From Copranaerobaculum intestinale (GTDB lineage Bacteria; Bacillota_I; Bacilli_A; Erysipelotrichales; Erysipelotrichaceae), in assembly GCF_009831105.1 (NCBI RefSeq), contig NZ_WUUQ01000004.1:1-32000 (forward strand): a stretch of 32,000 nt of DNA. Direction: 5' to 3'. Below the pieces are notes generated by a model that saw only the letters and a program-made list of their open reading frames with translations, ran no database searches and was not told where the DNA came from. Below are positions 4,960-31,143 of the stretch, piece after piece (within the stretch, counting starts at the first letter, position 1; each line of letters starts with the position of its first letter). The translations under genes and the position numbers were made by a program.

Positions 4960-5442
4960 ATGATTGTTTTGGTACGTGTAGATGACCGTTTACTACATGG
5001 GCAGATGGCTATATCATGGACCAAGCATCTGCAGGCAGATACCATTTTAATTGCCAATCAGGCAGCGGTGAATGATGAATTTACAATGATGTCATTGCGT
5101 TTAGCCAAACCGCGCGGCGTTCAGATCATCATTCAGGATCTGTCACAGGCATTTTTATATTTAAAAGAAGCCGCAGATAGTGACTCACGGATCATGGTAG
5201 TCATTAAGAATCTGCGTGATGCTCAATGTATCCTCGAACAATTTCCGATGATTACCGAATTGAATATCGGAGGTCTTCGATCCCGCAGTCATGTACTGCG
5301 CATTCAGGATTCGGTTGCGCTCAATGCGGCAGATATTGAGCTATGCCGTAAAATCGGAGAGCGGGCTTGTGTCTATGTACAGGAAATTCCCAGTGAGAAG
5401 CGAAAGCCGATTCAGGATTTCATTAAGGATATTGATGTATGA
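4960..5442 (+). CDS. PTS mannose/fructose/sorbose-family EIIB component (copy 1)
   Basis: 160 aa. The N-terminal IVLVRVDDRLLHGQ motif, with the phosphorylatable His, is diagnostic of EIIB-Man. Confidence 0.9.
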   Translation: MIVLVRVDDRLLHGQMAISWTKHLQADTILIANQAAVNDEFTMMSLRLAKPRGVQIIIQDLSQAFLYLKEAADSDSRIMVVIKNLRDAQCILEQFPMITELNIGGLRSRSHVLRIQDSVALNAADIELCRKIGERACVYVQEIPSEKRKPIQDFIKDIDV

Positions 5443-5819
5443 AGCGATTAATTTTGATCACACATGATACATTGGCGGATGCCTATCTGGAAACGCTGCA
5501 TAATTTTCTTGCGGATACTTCCTTTATTCGCTGTATTGGTGTGGATGCAAGAGCAAGTCTGGAAGCAGTGCAGAAAAAGCTGCTGGAAGAATGGAATGAA
5601 AATGATACCTTTTTGGTGCTGAGTGAGCTATCGATTGCCAGCAGTACCAAGGTGGCTGTCAATGCCGCGAAAGGAAGACCGAATATGTATGTCATCAGCG
5701 GATTAAATATGCTGATGCTGATTCAATTTGCGCTGCAGCCGCTGGAGGCGGACATGGAAGCGTATATTAAACGGATAACTGCTGATGCGCAGGCAGATAT
5801 CAGATATTGGAAACAGTAG
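5439..5819 (+). CDS. PTS mannose-family EIIA-like component (copy 1, divergent)
   Basis: 126 aa. ATGA start/stop overlap with the preceding EIIB gene. N-terminal LILITHDTLADAYL keeps the His at the EIIA-Man position, but the D-x-x-GGSP loop is degenerate (SELSIASST). Confidence 0.7.
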   Translation: MKRLILITHDTLADAYLETLHNFLADTSFIRCIGVDARASLEAVQKKLLEEWNENDTFLVLSELSIASSTKVAVNAAKGRPNMYVISGLNMLMLIQFALQPLEADMEAYIKRITADAQADIRYWKQ

Positions 5820-5835
5820 AAAGGAGAACAGGATT

Positions 5836-6309
5836 ATGGATCAGCCGAATATTCTGTTGGGGAGAATAGACAACCGCCTTGTGCACGGGCAGGTTGGAGT
5901 CTCCTGGACAAATTATCTGGGAGCCAATTTAATCGTCGTGGCTGATGATGAAGTGGCACATGAAGAGGTGCAGCAGGAATTGATGGAACTCACGGCAGTG
6001 ACATCAGGAGCTGAAATCCGCTTTTTTACCGTACAGGAAACCATCGACATCATCTGGAATGCATCCGATGATCAGCGGATCTTTATTGTGACCAGAACAC
6101 CGTTTGAAATGCTGAAGCTGATTGAAGGCAATGTTCCGATCAAAAAAGTGAATATCGGTAACATGCACTTTGAAGAGGGAAAGCATCAAATCAGTTTAAA
6201 AGTCTTTGTTGATGATGAAGATCTGAAGAATCTTCATGCAATGCAAGACAAGGGAATTGAAGTATTTATACAGGAAATACCAGGAAAAATGGCAGAACAA
6301 TTTAAATAA
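5836..6309 (+). CDS. PTS mannose-family EIIB component (copy 2)
   Basis: 157 aa from ATG 5836 (AAGGAGAA RBS; the track ORF starts further upstream). ILLGRIDNRLVHGQV motif. Confidence 0.9.
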   Translation: MDQPNILLGRIDNRLVHGQVGVSWTNYLGANLIVVADDEVAHEEVQQELMELTAVTSGAEIRFFTVQETIDIIWNASDDQRIFIVTRTPFEMLKLIEGNVPIKKVNIGNMHFEEGKHQISLKVFVDDEDLKNLHAMQDKGIEVFIQEIPGKMAEQFK

Positions 6310-15075: not shown

Positions 15076-18000
15076 ATGAATTCATGGAGAAATGTAGTAT
15101 TCGGCAGATGTATTCCTAGTCTTCTGGCAACGATTGGCCCGGATGACTGCCAGCCTAATTCTTCGGGGTCACTGGATGTCATCGTCCAGCTTAAGGATAT
15201 AGCAGGCAACGTATCACCGTTGCCGGATGGTCTATTTTTGACAGTCAGTGATTCTAAGGAAACGATGCAGACGCTGCCGTTGGCAGCCAATGATGATGGT
15301 ATTGCTCATCTGACATTAACCGATATGACCGGGGTAGAGGCAGTTGCGGTCTTGACCGATAAGGATGGTTACCAGATGATGAACGGGGACCGTTTTATGA
15401 TTCGCTATGTGGTGGATGAGGAAGTGCAGGAAGAGGATTATGCTCATATATACTTCCGCAACGATCATCATGAACTGCGTATCGAATGTATGAAGCAGGA
15501 TCCGACAGAATTAGAGCTTTACACAGTAAAACGCAATGAATTTAATGAAATCGTGCCGCTTGAGGATGATGACTGTTATGTCGTGCATATCACGCAGTCA
15601 AAACGAGATCACGTGGTCACACTGGATCGCGGTAATGATCACCACGTTACGCTTCAGGATGTGTTCAGCGGTATGGTGTGCATCCATATGGAAGATGCAG
15701 AGGGTTATGCGTTGAGCTATCGTTTCAATAACGGACCGGAAACCGATTGCGGTGAAATGGATATTTTAGCCGGCACGCATAACGAAGCACAGTTGATCCT
15801 CACCAAGAAGCCATCGAATATATTGACATTGACTAAGCTGATCCGCGAGGATGACGGTACCCTGGTTGTACCGCAGAATGGATGCTTCTCGGTACATGTA
15901 TTGGGTGCTTCGATGGATCAGATCGTGATGTTGAATGAAGCCAACCATTTTACCGCTGATCTATTCGATATGTGTCCGGGCACGTATTCCATCAGTGAAG
16001 AATGCACCGGCGGCTATGAGGTAAGCTACATTGTGAACGGAATGCCGGAATGTAATTATGCCCAGGTGGAAATGGATGCCTGTGACAGCAACGACGTTAT
16101 GATCATCAATTCGTATCCGGTGAGTGATGACTGCTGTGGATCACGTTTGCGCATTTGCAAGTATATCCGTGATGATCATGGGCGGCTGAATCGGCCATGC
16201 GGCTGTGAAAGCTTTAAGGTCATGCTTACCGGCTGCGGCCGTCAGGAAGTATTTAATTTAAACGAGTCTAATAATTGGTGTGTGGATATTGATACGATCT
16301 GCAGCGGCTATTATGAGGTATGCGAGCTAGACTGCAATGAATACAGCACTTCTTATATTGTGAACGGCGGCGAAGAAATGACAACTGCCTGTGTCAATGT
16401 GAGTGAGGGCTTCTCCAACAGTGTTAAAGTGGTCAACACCGAACGCTGTAAAGGAAGGGTTACCATCAGCAAATATATTCGTAATGAAAATGGTGAGCTG
16501 GTGCGTCCGAAACGTGATTATGTGTTTTATGCGACGCTGAAAAGCTATTTCATGAAAGAGAGCTTTGTGCTGAACGAGGCGAATGATTGGTGTGTCAGCT
16601 TCGATAATCTTCGCGAAGGCAGTTATGAAGTCAAGGAACAGTGTCTGGATGATATGGACACATGGTATATGGTAAACGGCTGCCCGATGAATCGTAAAGC
16701 TCGTTTCATCGTAGAGGGAAGTGGCACCAATGAAGTAAAAATCGTTAATGAAGAACGTCCTAGTCACATCGGTACGCTGACGATCTGCAAGATGATGGAA
16801 ACCGAAGGCGGAGCATTGGTAAAGCCGTCCGGCAGTGATCGTTTTGAAATTCGGCTGGAAGGCGGCGGAGAATGTGTGGATACGACCCTTTCATACCGTA
16901 ATGGTTGGAGAATCTGTGCGGATGATCTGCGCCAGGGAACATATTGTGTCAGCGAGTTGAACAGTGAGAATGTACGCTATCTGGTTGATGGCTGTGAACG
17001 CAGCTGTGCCTGTGTGGAAATGGATGAATGTCCGCATGAGATCGTTATTATCAACCCGGAGGATCGCTTTGGCACACTGCGTATCTGCAGCCGCATTGAA
17101 ACCTGCGACGGCGATCTCAACCGACCGGATGATCGTGAATGCTTCACGGTGCTGGTAGAAGGCCGCAAATTCTCTAAGGAATATGTGTTAAGCTGTGAGA
17201 ATAACTGGTGTATCAGCATGGATCAGCTACCAAAGGGACGCTACCGCATTTACCAGAAGGATGATTATGGTTATCTGGTAAGCTATGAAATCAACGGAAA
17301 ACGCAAAAACCGTGCTTCAGTTTCATTATATGAACAGGATATCGAAGTAACGATCATCAATCAGGTCCGCACCTGTGTCGGAGAAGTCTGCATCAGTAAG
17401 TGGATATGTGACGACGGTGAGCTGTATACGCCGGAATATGGCTGCTATGAAATAGAGCTGAAAGGCCGTCGGTACAAGGAATGCTTTACGCTGGATGCGG
17501 AGAATAGCTTTACAGTTTGTCTGAATGATCTGGAGGAAGGCAAATATCATGTGAAGGAAATCAAGGGAAATGGTCGTATTTTAATCAATGGCTGCGACAG
17601 TGACGGTTCCTTTATAGTAGGCCGTAGTGATATTGATATCAGAGTAGTAAATGACACGATACCGGTACCGCTTGTAACGATTGAAAAACAGCTCAAGGAT
17701 GAGTGCGGCAATTTATGTAAGCCAGAAGAGGATGACTGTTTCGAAATTCTGGTGGAAGGCAAAAACTGCCGAGACTACTATACGCTGGACTGCACCAACG
17801 ACTGGAAGATCTGTCTGGATCAGCTGGAAGCAGGCATGTATCACATTTATGAAAAAGCATGCGGCTATGAAGTAAGCTTTATGATTGACGGAGAGTGCCG
17901 CAATGACGGCAGCTTCTCAGTTGCAAAGAAAGATGTCCACATCCTGATGATCAACGAAATGCTTCCGCATGCCGATGTTGAAGTCAGCAAGTGGATTCGT

Positions 18001-21000
18001 GATGAGAGCGGGATGCTGGTAAGACCGCATCGAGATGAATGCTTTGAAATTAAGATCGAGGGGGAATCGTACTGTCAGACCTTTGATCTCAATTATGACA
18101 ACAACTGGTGTTTATGTCTGGATGATTTACGGCCGGGAAGATATGAGATCAAGGAGGCCATGTGTCCGGAATACGATGCAAGCTTTATCATCGATGATAA
18201 AGAAATGACGCAGGGTATCTTCTTTGTTGATATGAATGATGTAGAGATCAAGGTCATCAATCAGGATCGGGTAACCGGAAATCTGGATATCTGTGCATTT
18301 GTAAGAGAGGGCGGAAGCCTGTATGATCCGATCGACAGCGATGCTTTTACATTCTGTATCGCCAAGGACGGCTGCAATGAAGAATATACACTCGACTGCA
18401 GCAACGACTGGTGCATTCGATTAGAGAATCTGTACAGCGGTATTTATCGTATCAGTGCGGCAGACAGCGATTATCAAATGGAAGTAGAAGTAGACGGCTG
18501 TCCGGTTATGGAAGGCCGGGTACCGGTTGACTGCGGGGATACGGCAGTTAAACTGATTTTTGCGAAAATTGGCTGTGATGTGCATGTATGTAAGTGCATG
18601 ATGGAAGAGGAGTGTCTGATAAAGCCGACCAATGATCAGCACTTCACAATGAAGCTGAGCGGTGAGGGACGTGAAGAAACCCTGCATCTCACACATCGTA
18701 ACAATTTTGAGATGACAGTACACGATGTGAAAAATGGCCGCTATGAAATTGTTGAAATCAATCATGAGGGCTTTGAAACGATGTATGAGATCAATGGCTG
18801 TGAACAGATGGACGGTCGATTTGAAGTAATGGATGAGGATGTGGATATTACGGTAATCAATGAAGAAATGCAGAACAGCGGCATCCTGAGTATTCACGCA
18901 ATGATCCGCGACTGTAATAACAATCTGCTTTCACCGAGCGGCAATATGCGTTTCCATGTTGATGTGGAAAGCCGTGAGTTTTCAAATCACTATGTTCTCA
19001 GCAGCGCCAATCAATGGAGAGTTGAAATTGCCGGATTGAAACAAGCTCGTTACAGCATTGTCCAGGAGCTGGAAGAGGGCATGGAAAAAGTGCGCTACCG
19101 CATCAATGGGGGAAGAGAACTGAATCATGCGATGGTTTCCATCAGTGAACAGGATCAAAGTGTTGAGATCATTAATGTGATGGACTGTAATAAGGGAAGT
19201 ATTTCTATCTGCAAACTCTATCGTGACAACAGCTGCGGCTGTTTAAGCAAGCCGATTGGCGATGAAGCTTATAAGATTGTGCTGAGTGGTCCTGCCGAAG
19301 ACCGCGAGTACGTTCTGAATGCGGAAAATGAGTATTGTGTCAAAGCTGAAATGCTGGATGACGGCATGTATCTGATTAAGGAAGTGCCGATTGTGGGCAA
19401 TCAGGTAACGTATATGGTAGACGGAGGGAAGGAAACCAAGGAAGCAGTTGTGCATGTTTTGGGATCTGCTCATCAGGTGAAGGTGATCAATAGCTCCGCA
19501 TCCGGTGACTCAGCTATTCAAATTTGTAAGTTTATCCGCAGCGACGGCAGCTTAAGCCGGCCGTCAAGGGGCACCTATCAGGTGGTATTGAGAAGCGGCA
19601 ATTTCTCACAGGAATTTACGCTGAATCAGGCAAATCGCTACTGTGTCAAAGTTGATCAGCTGCAAGACGGCGTCTATGAGGTTGAAGAACTAGGCGGCAG
19701 AGATGTCACTTATATCGTTGATGGCAAAGCAGAGACGCAAACGGCTCGCGTATCGGTAAACGGCGGCAGCCATAGCATCAGTGTGATCAACCGCGAGGGT
19801 GAAAGCGATGCCGGCAGTATTCGTATCTGTAAATATTTGAGAAATGCCGGCGGCGAACTGGTGAAGCCTGCTTCATCGGCTGTGTTTGAAGCAGTACTGG
19901 AAGGTCCGGGGATGGCAAAAACAATGATCCTGAGCGCTGCCAACAACTGGTGCGCGGCTGCTGATGATTTACAAGCAGGCACTTATCGGATCATGGAGAA
20001 AAACAGCGGCGATAACACCGTCTCATATATGGTGAATGATGAAGCGGAGAGCGATGAAGCTTATATTGAAGTAGACGGCAGTGCGAATGAGGTAAAAATT
20101 ATCAATACGCCAAGTGTCCAAGACCGCGGCTCGATTACCCTGCGCAAATATGTACGCAGCGCTGACAATCAAATGATGCAGCCGGATTCATCGGCCCGCT
20201 ATCGTATCCATGTCAGTAAGTCCGGCTTCAATCGAACCATTACGCTGGATAAAAATAATAACTTTACGATGATCTTAAGTAATCTCACTGACGGCAACTA
20301 CACCGTAGAAGAATTAGGCGATCATCAGGTAACCTATATCATCGATGGCGGAAATGAAGTGAATTTCGCTGTCGTAACCGTACTTGGCTCAGCTCATCAG
20401 GTAGATATCATCAATCAGGAGGAAACAAAGGATAACGGTACCATTCAGATTTGCAAATATATCCGTGATACTGCGGGAGATTTGATTCGTCCCAGCGGCA
20501 ACCGTGAATTTGAAGTACAGATATCAAAAGCCGGATACAATGAAACAAAAAAGCTGAATCGGATGAATAACTGGTGTGTGACGCTGGAAAATCTGAAGCC
20601 GGGTAATTATACGGTGCAGGAAATGAACAACGGCGATGATGTCACCTATATCGTCAATGACGGCAGTGAAATCGATTATGCGGTAGTTTATGTCAATGGG
20701 GAAGCAAATACGGTTCAGATCATTAACCGAAGCGAAGCTTCGCAGGGCGGAAGCTTGCATTTGTGTAAGTTTATCCGCAACACGCAGGGACAGTTGATTC
20801 GTCCCAGCGGTGATGCGAAATATTTGATGCATGTTTCTGGACCGGGGCTGAATCTGACCCGTACCCTGGATCGTGACAACGACTGGTGTGATACGCTGAA
20901 TAACCTGCCAACTGGAACGTATGTACTGCAGGAGCTGTCTACAGCCGATAAAGTAACGTATATTATCAACAATGGTTCGGAGGTGGACAATGCGATCGTC

Positions 21001-22686
21001 CGCATTGATCAAACCGCCAGCCATGTGCAGGTCATCAATACCGCCCTGTCACCAAGCGGCGGCAGTATTCAGCTTTGCAAGTATATCCGCGATGAACGCG
21101 GCTTACTGGTTCGTCCCAGCGGTGATGCAGAGTTTTTGATGCATATATCCGGTCCGGGACTCAATACCGGTACAAAGCTGAACCGTGATAATAATTGGTG
21201 CACTGTATATGACCGGCTGGGAGAGGGAACTTATGTACTCCAGGAAATTACTACCGGCGACAAGGTCACCTATATTGTCAACGGCGGCAGTGAAGTGGAT
21301 AACGGCATCATCGATGTCCGCGGCAACACCAATATCGTACAAGTGGTCAATTCCCAGATGACGCCGCCGCAGGGCGGAACGATTCAAATCTGCAAGTATC
21401 TGAGAAACAGCGATAACCAGTTGGTGAAGCCAAGCGGTGCAGCCAGCTATCAGGTGCGTATCACCGCGGCCGGATATAATGAGATACAGCGTCTTGACAA
21501 CACCAACAACTGGTGTGTTAAGCTTGAAAATTTAAGCAACGGCAACTATACGATCAGTGAAGTGGATAATCCGAATAAAGTATCTTATATCATCAACGAT
21601 GGCAGTGAAGTGGATTATGCCACGGTCTTTGTCAACCATGACGTAAATGAAGTAAAGATGATCAATTATCCTGGTGTATCTACCGGCTCCATCACCTTAC
21701 GCAAACGTATCAAGTCGGCAGACGGCTCAGAGAGCGCACCGGTACTGGGAGATGAATTCTCAGTTGCGCTGATGTCCGCAAATTTCTATCAGATCTATAC
21801 GCTGAATTATGATAATCGCTTTATCGAAACGATCAGTGATCTGCCGAAGGGCACATATACGGTACAGGAAGCAGATAATTCCGGAGAATATCAGGTGACG
21901 TATCGGATCAATAACCAGGCACCGGTGGAGATTGGTCAGCTGAATGTTGACAATAATGCTAATCACGTGGATATCATCAATGAGCTGACAGCCGATGCCA
22001 ATAGTTTGGAATTCATGAAGTTTGTAGTACAGGAAAACGGTACCTTGGGCAAGCCGCGAAACGATGAAGTGTTCCAAGTGATCGTGCAGGGGCCAAGTGT
22101 GAATGAAACCGTTGAACTGAACCAGGCAAACAACTGGTATCACTATATGAACAATCTTCCGGAGGGCAATTATACGCTCCGGGAATCCCAAGCAGCCGGC
22201 TATACGACATCTTATATTGTAAACGGCGGTGAGCCGCTTGCGGAAGCAGCCTTCTTTGTTGGGCCGGATGTAAGCAATTTGGTGGAAATATTGAATACGG
22301 CCGATGATCAGGCAGTACGCGGCTCAATTACCGCTCAGGTCATGGTCGAGGATGCTGACGGTATTCTGCATAAGCCGCAGCCAAAGCAGGAGTTCCATGT
22401 GCGTTTCAGCGGTGAGGATATTGATCAGGTAGTTGCACTGAATCAAAACAACCGTTTCATGTATATCAATGAGCAGTTGGATACCGGCACTTACTATGTC
22501 GAAGCACAGGATTCCTATGGCTATGAACCGTATTATCGGATCAACGGTGGTGAGAAGCAGCCCTATGCACGAGTGAATGTTGTCGATTCCCGCAATCATA
22601 ATGTAACTTGTGTCATGAAGCAGGTACGGCCGCTGTATGAATCCGATCAAAAAAACGATCATTCTATCAGTATTGTAATCGAATAG
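15076..22686 (+). CDS. giant tandem-repeat protein of about 23 CnaB/SpaA-like (prealbumin-fold, isopeptide-type) modules; no signal peptide, LPXTG or other anchor recognised
   Basis: Single 2,536-aa ORF with GGAGGA RBS 6 nt before the ATG. The recurring ~100-aa pattern is GsIxICKYIR..G.LvrPSG..F.V...L....NNWC...L..G.Y.V.E...VtYiVnGG....V.V....V.VIN. Terminators flank it on both sides. Confidence 0.9.
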   Translation: MNSWRNVVFGRCIPSLLATIGPDDCQPNSSGSLDVIVQLKDIAGNVSPLPDGLFLTVSDSKETMQTLPLAANDDGIAHLTLTDMTGVEAVAVLTDKDGYQMMNGDRFMIRYVVDEEVQEEDYAHIYFRNDHHELRIECMKQDPTELELYTVKRNEFNEIVPLEDDDCYVVHITQSKRDHVVTLDRGNDHHVTLQDVFSGMVCIHMEDAEGYALSYRFNNGPETDCGEMDILAGTHNEAQLILTKKPSNILTLTKLIREDDGTLVVPQNGCFSVHVLGASMDQIVMLNEANHFTADLFDMCPGTYSISEECTGGYEVSYIVNGMPECNYAQVEMDACDSNDVMIINSYPVSDDCCGSRLRICKYIRDDHGRLNRPCGCESFKVMLTGCGRQEVFNLNESNNWCVDIDTICSGYYEVCELDCNEYSTSYIVNGGEEMTTACVNVSEGFSNSVKVVNTERCKGRVTISKYIRNENGELVRPKRDYVFYATLKSYFMKESFVLNEANDWCVSFDNLREGSYEVKEQCLDDMDTWYMVNGCPMNRKARFIVEGSGTNEVKIVNEERPSHIGTLTICKMMETEGGALVKPSGSDRFEIRLEGGGECVDTTLSYRNGWRICADDLRQGTYCVSELNSENVRYLVDGCERSCACVEMDECPHEIVIINPEDRFGTLRICSRIETCDGDLNRPDDRECFTVLVEGRKFSKEYVLSCENNWCISMDQLPKGRYRIYQKDDYGYLVSYEINGKRKNRASVSLYEQDIEVTIINQVRTCVGEVCISKWICDDGELYTPEYGCYEIELKGRRYKECFTLDAENSFTVCLNDLEEGKYHVKEIKGNGRILINGCDSDGSFIVGRSDIDIRVVNDTIPVPLVTIEKQLKDECGNLCKPEEDDCFEILVEGKNCRDYYTLDCTNDWKICLDQLEAGMYHIYEKACGYEVSFMIDGECRNDGSFSVAKKDVHILMINEMLPHADVEVSKWIRDESGMLVRPHRDECFEIKIEGESYCQTFDLNYDNNWCLCLDDLRPGRYEIKEAMCPEYDASFIIDDKEMTQGIFFVDMNDVEIKVINQDRVTGNLDICAFVREGGSLYDPIDSDAFTFCIAKDGCNEEYTLDCSNDWCIRLENLYSGIYRISAADSDYQMEVEVDGCPVMEGRVPVDCGDTAVKLIFAKIGCDVHVCKCMMEEECLIKPTNDQHFTMKLSGEGREETLHLTHRNNFEMTVHDVKNGRYEIVEINHEGFETMYEINGCEQMDGRFEVMDEDVDITVINEEMQNSGILSIHAMIRDCNNNLLSPSGNMRFHVDVESREFSNHYVLSSANQWRVEIAGLKQARYSIVQELEEGMEKVRYRINGGRELNHAMVSISEQDQSVEIINVMDCNKGSISICKLYRDNSCGCLSKPIGDEAYKIVLSGPAEDREYVLNAENEYCVKAEMLDDGMYLIKEVPIVGNQVTYMVDGGKETKEAVVHVLGSAHQVKVINSSASGDSAIQICKFIRSDGSLSRPSRGTYQVVLRSGNFSQEFTLNQANRYCVKVDQLQDGVYEVEELGGRDVTYIVDGKAETQTARVSVNGGSHSISVINREGESDAGSIRICKYLRNAGGELVKPASSAVFEAVLEGPGMAKTMILSAANNWCAAADDLQAGTYRIMEKNSGDNTVSYMVNDEAESDEAYIEVDGSANEVKIINTPSVQDRGSITLRKYVRSADNQMMQPDSSARYRIHVSKSGFNRTITLDKNNNFTMILSNLTDGNYTVEELGDHQVTYIIDGGNEVNFAVVTVLGSAHQVDIINQEETKDNGTIQICKYIRDTAGDLIRPSGNREFEVQISKAGYNETKKLNRMNNWCVTLENLKPGNYTVQEMNNGDDVTYIVNDGSEIDYAVVYVNGEANTVQIINRSEASQGGSLHLCKFIRNTQGQLIRPSGDAKYLMHVSGPGLNLTRTLDRDNDWCDTLNNLPTGTYVLQELSTADKVTYIINNGSEVDNAIVRIDQTASHVQVINTALSPSGGSIQLCKYIRDERGLLVRPSGDAEFLMHISGPGLNTGTKLNRDNNWCTVYDRLGEGTYVLQEITTGDKVTYIVNGGSEVDNGIIDVRGNTNIVQVVNSQMTPPQGGTIQICKYLRNSDNQLVKPSGAASYQVRITAAGYNEIQRLDNTNNWCVKLENLSNGNYTISEVDNPNKVSYIINDGSEVDYATVFVNHDVNEVKMINYPGVSTGSITLRKRIKSADGSESAPVLGDEFSVALMSANFYQIYTLNYDNRFIETISDLPKGTYTVQEADNSGEYQVTYRINNQAPVEIGQLNVDNNANHVDIINELTADANSLEFMKFVVQENGTLGKPRNDEVFQVIVQGPSVNETVELNQANNWYHYMNNLPEGNYTLRESQAAGYTTSYIVNGGEPLAEAAFFVGPDVSNLVEILNTADDQAVRGSITAQVMVEDADGILHKPQPKQEFHVRFSGEDIDQVVALNQNNRFMYINEQLDTGTYYVEAQDSYGYEPYYRINGGEKQPYARVNVVDSRNHNVTCVMKQVRPLYESDQKNDHSISIVIE
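15466..22620 (+). repeat. in-frame tandem array of about 23 diverged ~290-315-nt coding repeats
   Basis: Module boundaries were read from the translation; each ends in (V/I)-x-(V/I)-(I/V)-N. Modules 17-20 (20437-21666) are the most alike, about 55-60% aa identity by eye for modules 18/19. They share only short DNA identities, for example CGTCCCAGCGGTGATGC near 20800 and 21112. Confidence 0.8.
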
Positions 22687-26552: not shown

Positions 26553-26581
26553 TTGACAGAAGCGAAATCTCATTATAAGAT
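26553..26581 (+). promoter_or_regulatory. sigma-A-like promoter of the antiterminator/PTS operon
   Basis: TTGACA (26553-26558), 17-nt spacer, TAAGAT (26576-26581). The RAT element starts about 30 nt downstream. Confidence 0.55.
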
Positions 26582-26615
26582 ATAGACAAATAGATACATT
26601 TATAAATTTATGTGA

Positions 26616-26645
26616 GATTGTTACTGTAGAAAACAGGCAAAACTT
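26616..26645 (+). promoter_or_regulatory. RAT (ribonucleic antiterminator) element of the LicT/SacY/BglG type
   Basis: GATTGTTACTGTAGAAAACAGGCAAAACTT against the B. subtilis RAT consensus GGATTGTTACTG-(loop)-CAGGCAAAACC. Its 3' half overlaps the 5' arm of the following terminator. Confidence 0.85.
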
Positions 26646-26698
26646 ACTTTTCACAAGACTTGCTTTTAAGCGGTCGGAAAGTAGTTTTGTCTTTTTTT
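26638..26698 (+). terminator. conditional terminator overlapped by the RAT
   Basis: CAAAACTTACTTT (26638-26650) pairs with AAAGTAGTTTTG (26678-26689), followed by TCTTTTTTT. Confidence 0.8.
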
Positions 26699-26723
26699 GT
26701 TTAAAAAGAAAGGAAGGATGAAT

Positions 26724-27554
26724 ATGCAGGTCGTTAAGGTATTCAACAACAATGCCGCTGCAGTAGTCCTTGAGGATGGCAGTGAAGCGATTGTCACCGG
26801 CAAGGGTGTCGGCTTTAGTAAAAAGCCGAAGGACTTTGTCAATCTAGGACGCGTTCAAAAGGTGTACACCATAGAGAAAAACAAGCGGAATCGTCTGTAC
26901 CGGCTCATGGAAACAACCCCCTATGAATACATTCGGGTGTCAGAAGCCATTCTGGAAAAAGTGAAAAAAGAGCTGTATCCCAATATCAATGACTTGTGTT
27001 TATTCAGTCTTGTCGATCATATCTCTTTTGCTATTGAACGTGTTCAAAAGGGGATTGAGCTTCCCAATTTGATCCTAAGAGAAACTCGCTGGCTGTATCC
27101 TCAGGAGTATGATATTGCGAAGTGGGCATTACAGGAAATTCATCAAACCAGTCAGGTGCAGTTACCGGATGACGAAGCGGGTTATATTGTGCTTCACATT
27201 TTAAACGCATCCGGAACCAATAAGAAGGACAATCTATTGGATATCATGAACTGCACCAAGATCATTACCGGAATCATCGAGGAAGAGATGAAACTGGAAA
27301 TCGATCAGAATGATTTTGATTATTACCGTTTTGTCATGCATGTTAAATACTTACTGTCGAAGCTGAAAACCGGGCAGGATCAGGCTCTGGCTAATGCCGA
27401 TGAGCTTTACGCGATATTTATTGAAAAAGATGCAAAGCTGCGTAAGAGCATTGATCGGATCAATACCCTGATTCAGAAGGAATACGGGGTTTCCTTAAGC
27501 AGACAGGAAATTGTCTACTTGGCAATTCATATCACCAAGTTCATCAAACGATAA
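26724..27554 (+). CDS. licT: BglG/LicT-family PRD transcription antiterminator
   Basis: 276 aa from ATG 26724. The N-terminal CAT RNA-binding domain MQVVKVFNNNAAAVVLEDGSEAIVTGKGVGF matches the MKI.KV.NNNV....G.E.I..G.GI.F pattern. Two PRDs follow with conserved His (LVDHISFAIER, YIVLHILNA, FVMHVKYLL, YLAIHITKF). Confidence 0.9.
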   Translation: MQVVKVFNNNAAAVVLEDGSEAIVTGKGVGFSKKPKDFVNLGRVQKVYTIEKNKRNRLYRLMETTPYEYIRVSEAILEKVKKELYPNINDLCLFSLVDHISFAIERVQKGIELPNLILRETRWLYPQEYDIAKWALQEIHQTSQVQLPDDEAGYIVLHILNASGTNKKDNLLDIMNCTKIITGIIEEEMKLEIDQNDFDYYRFVMHVKYLLSKLKTGQDQALANADELYAIFIEKDAKLRKSIDRINTLIQKEYGVSLSRQEIVYLAIHITKFIKR

Positions 27555-27688: not shown

Positions 27689-29113
27689 ATGAAAAAGTAT
27701 TGGAACCGATTTATGAATCAAATGAATAAGTTCGGCAAAGCTATGCTGCTGCCGATCGTCGTGCTGCCGCTTGGCGGTTTGCTGCTGTTTTTAGGAGATC
27801 CGACCATCCTGAATTTACCGGTATTGACTGCGGTGAGTTCTGTCGTATTCGGAAATATCGATCTGTTATTTGCAATTGGCGCAATCAGTGCATTCGCAAA
27901 AACCAAGGATAAAACCAGCCCGATCGTTGCGGTCGTCTTATCCTTGATGGCTTTTAAAAATGTGCTTACAACAGTTAATGAAAATGTAAGCATGGGTGTA
28001 TTTGCCGGTATTTTGGTAGGTATCACCACGGTATTTATTTATAATCACAGCCGTGAGTGGAAAACCCCGAGCATGTTTAATTTCTTCACCGGTGATAAAT
28101 TTGTTATCACGTTAGCACCGCTGTGTATGATTGCATTAGGCTGTATCTTCGCCTATGTATGGGCTCCAATTCAGGATGTTTTGAATACCTTTGCGATCTG
28201 GATCGGTTCCGCCGGAGTGATCGGCGTCATTATTTACGGTATTTTGAACCGTCTGTTGATCCCCATCGGACTGCATCATATTCTGAATGTTTATATCTTT
28301 TATGAAATGGGTTCTTTCGCTGTAAACGGCGGTATCGTAAAGGGAGAAATTGCTCGCTTTGCGGCCGGTGATCCTACGGCCGGTGCCTTTTTGGCCATGT
28401 ACTTCGTTGTTACAATGTTTGGATTACCGGCAGTCTGCGCCGCTATCTACAATACTGCCAAGAAAGAGAAAAAATCAGAAATCAAAGGTGCGATGGTTAC
28501 CAATGCCCTGACATCCTTTGTTACCGGTATTACCGAGCCGGTTGAATTTTCCTTTATGTTTGTCGGACCTCAGCTGTATGTCATGCACGCGTTGTTCACC
28601 GGTATTGCAGGCGGCTTTCTGTATCTTTTAAATGTTAAAGAAGGCTTAACCTTTGGATTCAGCTTCATCGACTATGTTGTACTTTATAATAAAGCTTCAG
28701 CGCCGCTTATGATCTTAGTGGTCGGTATTCCAATGGCCCTGCTGTACTATTTCAGTTTCCGTTACGTGATTGTTAAGAAGGATATCAAAACCCCGGGCCG
28801 TGAGGATGATATAGAATATGGTGAAGCAATCAGCGAGGATGAACAAAATCTGAAGCTGGCTCATACCAATTACCGCTATATGGCGAAAAAGGTATTAGAG
28901 AATCTGGGCGGTAAAGCGAATATTGTAGATATGGAAAACTGCATTACCCGTCTGCGTGTGGAATTAAAAGACGGCAAGCTGATCAATGAGGACAATATAT
29001 TAAAGACTGGGGCAAAGGGAGTCGTTCATCTTGGCGACAATGCGATTCAGATTGTCATCGGTACTGATGTGAAATATATCATGCAGGAAATTGAAGCTTT
29101 GATGGAGGATTGA
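27689..29113 (+). CDS. PTS glucose-family EIICB component (EIIC N-terminal, EIIB C-terminal)
   Basis: 474 aa from ATG 27689 (AAAGGAG RBS; the track ORF begins upstream at 27596). Glc-family motifs NRLLIPIGLHHILN and GITEPVEFSFMFVGPQLY. C-terminal EIIB-Glc Cys motif ENCITRLRV. Confidence 0.9.
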   Translation: MKKYWNRFMNQMNKFGKAMLLPIVVLPLGGLLLFLGDPTILNLPVLTAVSSVVFGNIDLLFAIGAISAFAKTKDKTSPIVAVVLSLMAFKNVLTTVNENVSMGVFAGILVGITTVFIYNHSREWKTPSMFNFFTGDKFVITLAPLCMIALGCIFAYVWAPIQDVLNTFAIWIGSAGVIGVIIYGILNRLLIPIGLHHILNVYIFYEMGSFAVNGGIVKGEIARFAAGDPTAGAFLAMYFVVTMFGLPAVCAAIYNTAKKEKKSEIKGAMVTNALTSFVTGITEPVEFSFMFVGPQLYVMHALFTGIAGGFLYLLNVKEGLTFGFSFIDYVVLYNKASAPLMILVVGIPMALLYYFSFRYVIVKKDIKTPGREDDIEYGEAISEDEQNLKLAHTNYRYMAKKVLENLGGKANIVDMENCITRLRVELKDGKLINEDNILKTGAKGVVHLGDNAIQIVIGTDVKYIMQEIEALMED

Positions 29114-29114
29114 T

Positions 29115-30515
29115 ATGTTGAAGATGCGAGAAGAAACCATCTGCCATTTTCTTGATATTCTGAAGCGCCGGCATATCGAATGTCATGCTTTGAGTATTTG
29201 TCAGAATGATCAGCTTCTGATTGAGGAAGCTTTTCATCCATATGAACTGGAGAAACTGCATCCCGTATATTCGGTTACCAAGTCCTTTACCTCAATGGCG
29301 ATCGGATTTCTGGAAGCAGAACAGAGGATTGATATTGAAAAGCCATGGATATCCTATTTTCCTGAGTATCGAAACGATGTGGAAGATCCGGCATTTTTGC
29401 AGGTTACGATTCGCCATCTGCTGACGATGTCTTTGGGACAGGACTGCGAGGTGGAGGTGATGAGGGGGGATCATTGGATTCAGACAATTTTGGGAAAGAA
29501 GCTGGCATATGCTCCGGGTTCAGTATTTTTCTATAACAGTCATTGTTCACATATGCTGTCTGCCCTTGTAACAAAGCTTACCGGGGAAAAAATGAGCGAG
29601 TATTTAAGACCACGATTGTTTGCTCCGCTGCAGATCGTTGATTATTACTGGCAGGAGGATCAGCAGGGTTTGTCGATCGGCGGCTATGGTCTGCACCTGC
29701 GTATTCACGATTTGATGAAATTCGGTAAATGCTGTTTGGATCATGGGACTTATAAGGGATTGCAGGTACTTTCAGAATCCTGGCTGAAGCAAGCAACCAG
29801 CTATCAAATGAAAAATGTGAATGTTTATCCGGCACAACGAAGTGAAAATCGACAGGGTTATGGTCTGCATTTCTGGATGTGTACAAGAGGCGGCTATCGG
29901 ATGTCCGGTCTGCATGCTCAGCTGTGCTTCATTCAGCCGGAAAATAATCTGGTCGTTGCGATGTTTAATAATTCAACCGGCAGTCAGGCGATTTTGGATT
30001 GTTTATTTGAAGCGATGGAGGATCAGCCGGAAACTGCACCGATACCCGTGTTTAAAATATTACCGCTATCTGGTACATCTAAAGAAACGGTCTTAGATCC
30101 ATGGCTGCATGAATTGATTCCTGCTGGTGTAAATGATTTTAAATTGGATTGGATTCGCTTTGAATCAGAGGATGACAAAATTCAAATTCATATCAGCCGC
30201 AATCAGCAGACGTACTGCGTATTAGCAGGATATAACAGTTGGCTGGCACAGGATAATCAGTTCCATACTTTTAATACGTTTATGTCTTATGATAGTCTGT
30301 GCAATGAACAGCCCAGCACGGTTGATAATACTTTATTTGCATCCTATGCCTGGATAACGCCGACCACGCTGAAGGTTGTCATACGTGAGCATGATCATTC
30401 TGCGGTGACAACCTTGACCTTTGCATTTGATCGTTATCATGTTGTACTGTATTATCATATCGACGGTTTATATACGAATCTGACTGAAACAAAGTGTGTC
30501 TTCAAACGACTATGA
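29115..30515 (+). CDS. beta-lactamase-fold serine hydrolase (PBP/class-C-like family), apparently cytoplasmic, with an extra ~150-aa C-terminal domain
   Basis: 466 aa with GGAGGA RBS; the start lies 1 nt after the EIICB stop. S-x-x-K motif at S53-K56 (PVYSVTKSFTSMAIG). A PGSVFFYNS segment sits at the Y-x-N position. The GYRMSGLHAQLCFIQPENNLVVAMFNN block resembles the family C-terminal (K/H)-T-G region. No N-terminal hydrophobic signal. Confidence 0.8.
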   Translation: MLKMREETICHFLDILKRRHIECHALSICQNDQLLIEEAFHPYELEKLHPVYSVTKSFTSMAIGFLEAEQRIDIEKPWISYFPEYRNDVEDPAFLQVTIRHLLTMSLGQDCEVEVMRGDHWIQTILGKKLAYAPGSVFFYNSHCSHMLSALVTKLTGEKMSEYLRPRLFAPLQIVDYYWQEDQQGLSIGGYGLHLRIHDLMKFGKCCLDHGTYKGLQVLSESWLKQATSYQMKNVNVYPAQRSENRQGYGLHFWMCTRGGYRMSGLHAQLCFIQPENNLVVAMFNNSTGSQAILDCLFEAMEDQPETAPIPVFKILPLSGTSKETVLDPWLHELIPAGVNDFKLDWIRFESEDDKIQIHISRNQQTYCVLAGYNSWLAQDNQFHTFNTFMSYDSLCNEQPSTVDNTLFASYAWITPTTLKVVIREHDHSAVTTLTFAFDRYHVVLYYHIDGLYTNLTETKCVFKRL

Positions 30516-30566
30516 GAAATGTAAATATTCATAGATTGCATGAATATTGCAGATGGGGAGGAAATG

Positions 30567-31043
30567 ATGATGTTTAAATTTTTTAAAAAGAAAGCTGTTC
30601 ATGTATATGCACCGGTTGACGGTATTCAAATTCCTCTGGAAGCGGTAAATGACCCGGTATTCGCAACAAAGATGATCGGTGCAGGGGCAGCCTTTGAACT
30701 ATCGGGGGATACGATATATTCACCATGTGCAGGAACGATTCATTTGATTGCGGATACACTTCATGCTTTCGGTATCGTTATGCCCGGCGGTATTGAAATT
30801 CTCATCCATGTCGGTCTGGAAACGGTCCGCCTGAAAGGGCAGGGATTAACACCGCTGAGAAAACAAGGAGATTCAGTTCAAGTGGGGACGCCGCTGCTTA
30901 AAATTGATCGTGGATTCATGAAGGAGCAGCAGGTGGATCTGACCACGATTGTGGTTATCGTGAAAGATAACGGTCTGCATACTGTGCTTTGTGACAATAC
31001 GCAAGTAAGCAGCGGCACTACCGAAATCTTCACGCTGCAATGA
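30567..31043 (+). CDS. PTS EIIA-Glc component
   Basis: About 158 aa. Start chosen among ATG 30564/30567/30570, after the GGGGAGG RBS at 30555-30561. PLE.V.DPVF, then HAFGI...G.EILIHVGLETV containing the two conserved His of Crr-type EIIA. Confidence 0.88.
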   Translation: MMFKFFKKKAVHVYAPVDGIQIPLEAVNDPVFATKMIGAGAAFELSGDTIYSPCAGTIHLIADTLHAFGIVMPGGIEILIHVGLETVRLKGQGLTPLRKQGDSVQVGTPLLKIDRGFMKEQQVDLTTIVVIVKDNGLHTVLCDNTQVSSGTTEIFTLQ

Positions 31044-31114: not shown

Positions 31115-31143
31115 AAAAGAAGCAGCTGTCTGCTTCTTTTTTC
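31115..31143 (+). terminator. rho-independent terminator ending the PTS operon
   Basis: AAAA-GAAGCAG-(CTGT)-CTGCTTC-TTTTTT. Confidence 0.8.

Follow-up and report, generated by a model that had tools for sequence, protein, structure and literature searches.

Here we analysed a PTS operon of Copranaerobaculum intestinale in which a gene for a serine hydrolase lies between the EIICB and EIIA genes. The window, meaning the whole stretch of DNA that was analysed, spans 32,000 nucleotides, and the genes and control elements of the operon are listed in Table 1. The hydrolase reading frame is intact and, as the first-pass annotation had described, begins one nucleotide past the EIICB stop codon (TGA, 29111-29113), with an EIIA gene next, recognised by its PF00358 domain. 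The GGAGG Shine-Dalgarno sequence of the hydrolase sits within the 3' end of EIICB. For EIICB and EIIA, starts at 27689 and 30564 are favoured because of homologue lengths and Shine-Dalgarno position. Also in line with the earlier description, neither the ORF list nor a Pfam scan indicated a glycosidase in the operon.

Table 1 Genes and control elements of the hydrolase-PTS operon, in window coordinates.
Feature	Position	Strand	Basis or detail
Sigma-70-type promoter-like site, TTGACA-17-TAAGAT	26553..26581	+	10/12 consensus bases
RAT (ribonucleic antiterminator) element	26614..26646	+	core pattern at 26617-26640; bulged hairpin when folded
Terminator hairpin overlapping RAT, then U run	26627..26699	+	-26.3 kcal/mol, z -3.35
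BglG/LicT/GlcT-family antiterminator	26697..27554	+	CAT_RBD and two PRD; probable start 26718 or 26724
PTS EIICB, divergent NagE-like	27689..29113	+	TIGR01998 best EII model; trees
Hydrolase ORF	29115-30515	+	466 aa; cytoplasmic PF00144 serine hydrolase, NylB/BAS-suc branch
C-terminal calycin (FABP/lipocalin)-like beta-barrel of hydrolase	30033..30512	+	structure matches
PTS EIIA-Glc type	30540..31043	+	PF00358 E 6.5e-40; TIGR00830 above cut-off; probable start 30564
Intrinsic terminator-like hairpin at operon end	31115..31140	+	-12.7 kcal/mol, z -2.59

The operon has the anatomy of a BglG-antiterminated PTS operon, with a CAT+PRD+PRD protein and a RAT that overlaps a terminator. The antiterminator scores 235 bits on the LicT model and 195 bits on the GlcT model, both below cut-off. 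The RAT was assigned against what we take to be the family consensus, and its core pattern also occurs 5' of the antiterminator gene in L001, L040 and L131; L040 has a second RAT-like site before its EIICB (L040:6469-6492). Promoter-like sites are no commoner in this region than in shuffled sequence, so that position is the sole support for the one listed, and an Rfam search returned chance matches only. In BglG/GlcT systems, dephosphorylation of the PRD antiterminator leads to read-through. We infer the same regulation here, in which substrate would drive dephosphorylation of the antiterminator and thereby read-through of the RAT terminator.

The GC content of the hydrolase gene is 0.43 compared to 0.42 for the genome, and the entire operon lies on a single contig in two independent public assemblies. 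Among the comparisons listed, 14 of 17 substitutions in the hydrolase gene fall at third codon positions, and near-identical DNA is present in gut samples from pig and mouse. A recent chance insertion is ruled out by the GC match, the intact copies in other assemblies and the conserved gene order. Elsewhere in the window (15076-22686) is a gene for a 2536-aa Cys-rich protein with many prealbumin-like (SpaA) repeats, in which a C-terminal sortase motif or membrane anchor is not visible.

The hydrolase matches PF00144 over residues 16-290 (E 2.6e-27, 96.3 bits against a gathering cut-off of 27), and its predicted model (pLDDT 95) has a PBP fold with a Foldseek probability of 1.0. The catalytic domain comprises approximately residues 1-305 and contains the motifs S53-V-T-K56, already recognised in the first-pass annotation as that of the PBP/beta-lactamase superfamily, Y140-N-S142, and R262-M-S264-G265. 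S53, K56, Y140, R262, and G265 are invariant among 42 clade members, and S264 is not. The enzyme is cytoplasmic, as first proposed: a hydropathy check (not SignalP) found no signal peptide, the maximum 19-residue Kyte-Doolittle mean being 0.97, and every clade member has its catalytic Ser at position 52-54. Judging from conservation, K128, H194, and R246, which are clade-specific, and the family-wide R262 could bind phosphate. The extra C-terminal domain reported earlier is real, with a pLDDT of 92 and about ten antiparallel strands in the predicted model, and it matches LBP-8 (Z 10.2), D-aminopeptidase 1ei5 (Z 7.2, rmsd 2.1, 83 aligned), and Pab87 2qmi (Z 6.2). It is not special to this enzyme, as outgroup family members have a median of 144 residues in the same position; the barrel is common to the wider family and therefore does not mark the clade.

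Profile and structure comparisons uphold the PF00144 assignment, with the NylB/BAS-suc branch rather than AmiE/YfeW as the closest named family. The BAS-suc model (NF045925), the best curated match, gives 167 bits over residues 20-284 against an equivalog cut-off of 800. Class C beta-lactamase models reach 16-18 bits against cut-offs of 415-850, and the hydrolase has Y-N-S and M-S-G instead of the class C Y-x-N and K-T-G motifs and lacks a signal peptide; it is not a class C beta-lactamase. The PBP4B model NF002968 gives 19.8 bits against a cut-off of 385, and the similarity to E. coli YfeW/PBP4B, encoded in the murQP operon, is 28.5 bits over 46 residues. YfeW was used as a stand-in for B. 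subtilis AmiE, to which we presume it is related, and kinship with AmiE/YfeW was rejected on this weak match. The nearest solved structures are Lsa45 (8DC1), 4GB7, and NylB (E 1e-17 to 1e-20, about 20% identity), and those of NylB and Lsa45 are an amidase and an esterase.

In a database search, 43 clusters at 34-99% identity stood apart as a group, below which identity dropped to about 30% in a large family, and the clade has a FastTree support of 0.986. Its distribution is patchy. The 396 genomes of the order yielded one clear orthologue, the closest named orthologue belongs to an uncultured Erysipelotrichales genome, and among the 397 genomes scored in the phylum sample the clade was not found outside the host genome, save one sister-group match. 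Plasmids contain distant relatives only, and an ESM Atlas search gave generic names only. An incomplete literature search found no description of this clade or of a PTS-linked PF00144 hydrolase. This is a conserved, real system that lies outside the chb deacetylase, AmiE/YfeW, BAS-suc, and class C beta-lactamase families. Among distant relatives, P0064 is a BAS-suc-branch hydrolase (367 bits) fused to a ChbG/YdjC deacetylase, P0073 bears a BNR domain, and those in L021, L026, and L031 have ABC sugar permeases on one side and a CE4 polysaccharide deacetylase on the other. For one plasmid match (H8, Parabacteroides distasonis), the annotation under the matched stretch is ChbG/HpnK deacetylase.

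To survey hydrolase neighbourhoods we combined protein look-ups with a scan of metagenomes and with whole genomes; clustering at 70% identity gave 21 lineages, a count that leaves out the 31%-identity sister L004. Inferred hydrolase/EIICB pairings, at least one of them doubtful (P0140/P0021), are likewise left out of the counts. The hydrolase lies in a PTS operon in 19 of the 21 lineages (35-100% identity), together with EIIC proteins of four families: NagE-like (7), BglF-like (8), Man-type (2), and Cel-type (2). Its linkage to PTS genes is thus conserved and not peculiar to this strain, and the earlier view of it as an integral operon member is borne out. Since the lineages are related, these are not 19 independent events. 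L037 has full context and no PTS, and for one further lineage the contig is too short to decide.

The seven NagE-like lineages share the order antiterminator, NagE-like EIICB, hydrolase, with EIIA in most, and none has an in-operon glycosidase. At the eight BglF-like loci the EIIBC gene precedes the hydrolase, and seven of them have a GlvA-like GH4, usually with GntR. This GH4 scores 665 bits against the maltose-6P glucosidase GlvA, which suggests a neutral alpha-glucoside at these loci. At one, NagB adjoins the GntR-GH4-EIIBC-hydrolase operon (L066:3237-3971), maybe as a chance neighbour. The two Man-type lineages have a tandem GNAT that matches the Clostridium acetobutylicum acetyltransferase structures 5KF1/5KGA, presumably GlmA, and one also has a MurQ over cut-off. 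The two Cel-type lineages have RpiR alongside the EIIC, with a GH1 nearby in L060.

Several further arrangements were seen. GlmA-like GNAT, mannose-family PTS, hydrolase, and RpiR genes occur together at L035:4964-11238, which includes MurQ, and L061:2829-7255; such loci might serve in the salvage of muramic acid in deacetylated or lactam form. In L007-L009 and L119, a mannose-family PTS operon that has a BtpA/SgcQ gene also includes a sister-group hydrolase. The region L120:1528-12456 encodes GntR, a split MalX-like EIICB, GH4, a glyoxalase-fold protein, EIIA, a sister-group hydrolase, M24 and M20 peptidases, and YhfT, a gene set that hints at a glyco-amino-acid substrate. The EIIBC and hydrolase frames at L078:6472-9375 are broken, possibly by sequencing error. 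An Rce1-like (CAAX protease) gene is near the hydrolase in two separate lineages (L033:9878-10732 and the PTS-free L037:7032-7961).

The EIICB of the window operon scores 414 bits on the NagE model TIGR01998 (cut-off 553), the best of all EII models, and 361 bits on PtsG, also below cut-off; it is NagE-like, not NagE. It is the genome's only Glc/Nag-type EIICB, and homologous EIICBs make up a larger clade. In trees it branches among the EIICBs of hydrolase-free sister operons, which are 44-63% identical to a Vibrio member. All nine of the sister operons inspected, from Vibrio, Clostridioides, Peptostreptococcaceae, Carnobacterium, and five GTDB genomes, have the order YdjC-EIICB-GH4. Conserved loci of this kind are L109, L110, L111, L113, L117, L118, and L128-L130; the antiterminator of L110 is split (5282-6139), and G316 has a further EIICB copy directly 5' of such an operon. 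The hydrolase-linked EIICBs form two strong groups in the tree, yet a single origin is not rejected (p-AU 0.37), so two origins of the EIICB-hydrolase pairing are not demonstrated.

A GH16 gene neighbours two of the nine sister operons, one product scoring 669 bits against 1UPS and the other being 61% identical to it. 1UPS is the endo-beta-galactosidase that releases GlcNAc-alpha-1,4-Gal, and the two GH16 proteins are GngC-like. The sister-operon GH4 is of the alpha type and 41% identical to the GlvA-like GH4 of L070, and the YdjC-EIICB-GH4 operon beside GngC probably uses the gastric-mucin disaccharide GlcNAc-alpha-1,4-Gal. Since the window operon lacks this GH4, it must serve a different substrate from the sister operons. 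A GH4 induced by mucin in Hoskinsella mucinilytica (PMC13096917) was also considered; it is grouped with GlvR, a malP-type EIICB, and two short hypothetical genes and so belongs to a different system.

The host genome (2.3 Mb, 98.9% complete) contains no MurQ and no YdjC. Six NagA proteins are over cut-off and two just below (NagA-like genes at C11:3037, C5:133834, C5:141681, C4:178350, C4:179570, C4:115680, C6:81612, and C3:117299), several of them beside mannose-family PTS and SIS genes. There are two NagB-like genes, with an internal TAA in C8:86829-87548. With NagA and NagB present, GlcN-6P and GlcNAc-6P are usable by the host. On the NagA count we rejected the hydrolase as a NagA replacement, and because six or more NagA are already present the acyl group is probably not plain N-acetyl. 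The single GH4 is located elsewhere in the genome with a Cel-type EIIC, and an Ntn asparaginase-2 protein (glycosylasparaginase family) is encoded outside any sugar locus.

We favour, with slightly better than even confidence, a role for the hydrolase as a deacylase of a glucosamine-type sugar 6-phosphate, from which it would remove an N- or O-acyl group. EIIA and the NagE-like EIICB would import an acylated glucosamine-type sugar and phosphorylate it at C6. The hydrolase would then form an acyl-enzyme at Ser53 and so strip the acyl group, Lys56 and Tyr140 acting as base and acid, and the product, GlcN-6P or GlcNAc-6P, would enter glycolysis via NagA/NagB. For the bond itself we lean towards a C2 amide (non-acetyl N-acyl, aminoacyl, or lactam) over an O-acyl ester. 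The enzyme would thus do the job of ChbG/YdjC in the sister operons with unrelated chemistry. At the GH4 loci deacylation would precede glycoside cleavage, and at the GNAT and MurQ loci deacylation or lactam opening would be followed by re-acetylation and then MurQ.

Hydrolase and YdjC never share a locus among those inspected, and the hydrolase occurs beside GH4; a deacylase therefore fits better than a glycosidase substitute. The first-pass annotation had placed the gene in the slot of a glycosidase, but hydrolase and GH4 share a locus in 7 of the 21 lineages, and the sister operons indicate a deacylase slot. The amino-sugar partners seen elsewhere in the clade (GlmA-like GNAT, MurQ, and NagB) point to an amino-sugar substrate. 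Distant relatives that are fused to YdjC, or encoded next to a CE4 deacetylase and ABC sugar permeases, also speak for a deacylase. On the other side, a fusion to YdjC suggests that the two activities complement each other and are not equivalent. The earlier proposal that an amide or ester bond is cleaved on an imported sugar phosphate is probably correct, while its analogy to AmiE and muropeptides finds no support in this organism.

A replacement for the glycosidase, in which an acyl bond at the anomeric carbon is cut to give the sugar 6-phosphate in one step, is unlikely. Its substrate would be GlcNAc-beta-Asn, an N-glycan remnant, or a 1-O-acyl sugar. The window operon's lack of both YdjC and GH4, the glycosidase-free NagE-type loci, the NagE-like EIIC, and the GH1 near the Cel-type locus L060 all agree with such a reaction. 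However, GH4 is retained beside the hydrolase in seven lineages, the genome already has the Ntn asparaginase-2 protein (though not in a sugar locus), and the GNAT and MurQ loci would be left unexplained. Quite unlikely, in turn, is an O-deacylase for neutral sugars such as acetylated or succinylated glucose, maltose, or trehalose phosphates, with 2-O-acyl glucose serving as a GlcNAc mimic for the transporter. This would suit the seven lineages with GlvA-like GH4, BglF-like EIIBC, and GntR, the title of esterase given to the top fold match Lsa45, and the O-succinyl esters made by BAS-suc, the nearest named family (PMC11749272). The sister transporters nevertheless serve N-acetylated sugars, judging from YdjC and GngC, and the MurQ, GlmA-like, and NagB partners indicate amino sugars.

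We regard it as very unlikely that the locus is an ordinary glcT-ptsG-type glucose/GlcNAc PTS with a passenger gene, whether for a generic esterase, a BAS-suc-like acyltransferase, or a beta-lactam-binding protein. The EIICB is the sole one of its type in the genome, a Faecalibacterium hydrolase locus also has HPr and EI, like ptsGHI, and L037 lacks a PTS. A passenger would not track four EIIC families, though, the EIICB is below both the NagE and PtsG cut-offs, and the enzyme is cytoplasmic, scores no higher than 18 bits on class C models, and has neither Y-x-N nor K-T-G. A cytoplasmic MurNAc-6P-L-Ala amidase for muropeptide scavenging, which has precedents in murP-amiE (PMC5061867) and murP-yfeW and some support from one clade member beside RpiR and MurQ, two beside a GlmA-like GNAT, and MurQ elsewhere in the related genome G318, is highly improbable here, because MurNAc-6P would be a dead end in a near-complete genome that has no MurQ, the hydrolase bears no real resemblance to YfeW, and the EIIC is unrelated to MurP beyond EIIB.

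Deacylation of an amino-sugar 6-phosphate may also extend to the clade as a whole. Tentatively, and at somewhat less than even confidence, its members would be an undescribed family of carbohydrate deacylases with the serine beta-lactamase fold. Their substrates would be amino-sugar 6-phosphates made by the PTS, and they would stand in for ChbG and NagA, to which they are not homologous, on acyl groups that those enzymes cannot remove. In that case some gut nutrient would so far have escaped recognition as a PTS substrate; aminoacylated glucosamine is one example and, at the GNAT and MurQ loci, muramic delta-lactam is another. There would also be a hint that sugar acyl hydrolases were the starting point of the BAS-suc branch. 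If correct, this reading would provide a new deacylase scaffold in bacterial sugar catabolism and a role for a branch whose members go by 'beta-lactamase family' or 'CubicO peptidase' in gut metagenomes, a label that can be misread as resistance. It also places a bile-acid enzyme, BAS-suc, in a family with repeated sugar-uptake links. The operon provides its own assay, as an antiterminator-based reporter could be used for inducer screening.

Several known systems resemble this one in part. NylB, 4GB7, and Lsa45 have the same Ser-Lys-Tyr catalytic set, but not the C-terminal barrel or a sugar-phosphate role. BAS-suc, the 3-succinylated cholic acid synthase of Bacteroides uniformis, is of similar length and has the beta-lactamase fold; the hydrolase belongs to a separate clade with R-x-S-G instead of R-x-D-G and is found in PTS operons, with no bile-acid link found. 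In B. subtilis murQRP-amiE and E. coli murQP-yfeW, a beta-lactamase-family gene likewise directly follows the PTS EII gene. Those systems have a MurP-type EIIBC and need MurQ, whereas the window operon has no MurP-type EIIBC, its hydrolase is on a different PF00144 branch from YfeW, and AmiE acts outside the cell (PMC5061867). B. subtilis glcT-ptsGHI has a BglG-type antiterminator and a Glc-family EII like the operon described here and also lacks a glycosidase (PMC3648570), contrary to the earlier premise that a BglG-type operon should encode one; it differs in having no hydrolase, and the EIIC here is NagE-like and divergent. In E. coli chbBCARFG, ChbG deacetylates chitobiose-6P before cleavage by ChbF (PMC9402603), and we infer a similar course for the window operon, in which a sugar is imported by the PTS and its 6-phosphate is then deacylated in the cytoplasm. 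The chb deacylase is a metal-dependent barrel, whereas the one proposed here would be a serine enzyme of the PBP fold, served by a Glc/Nag-family transporter and controlled by antitermination, with neither YdjC/ChbG nor GH4 in the operon.
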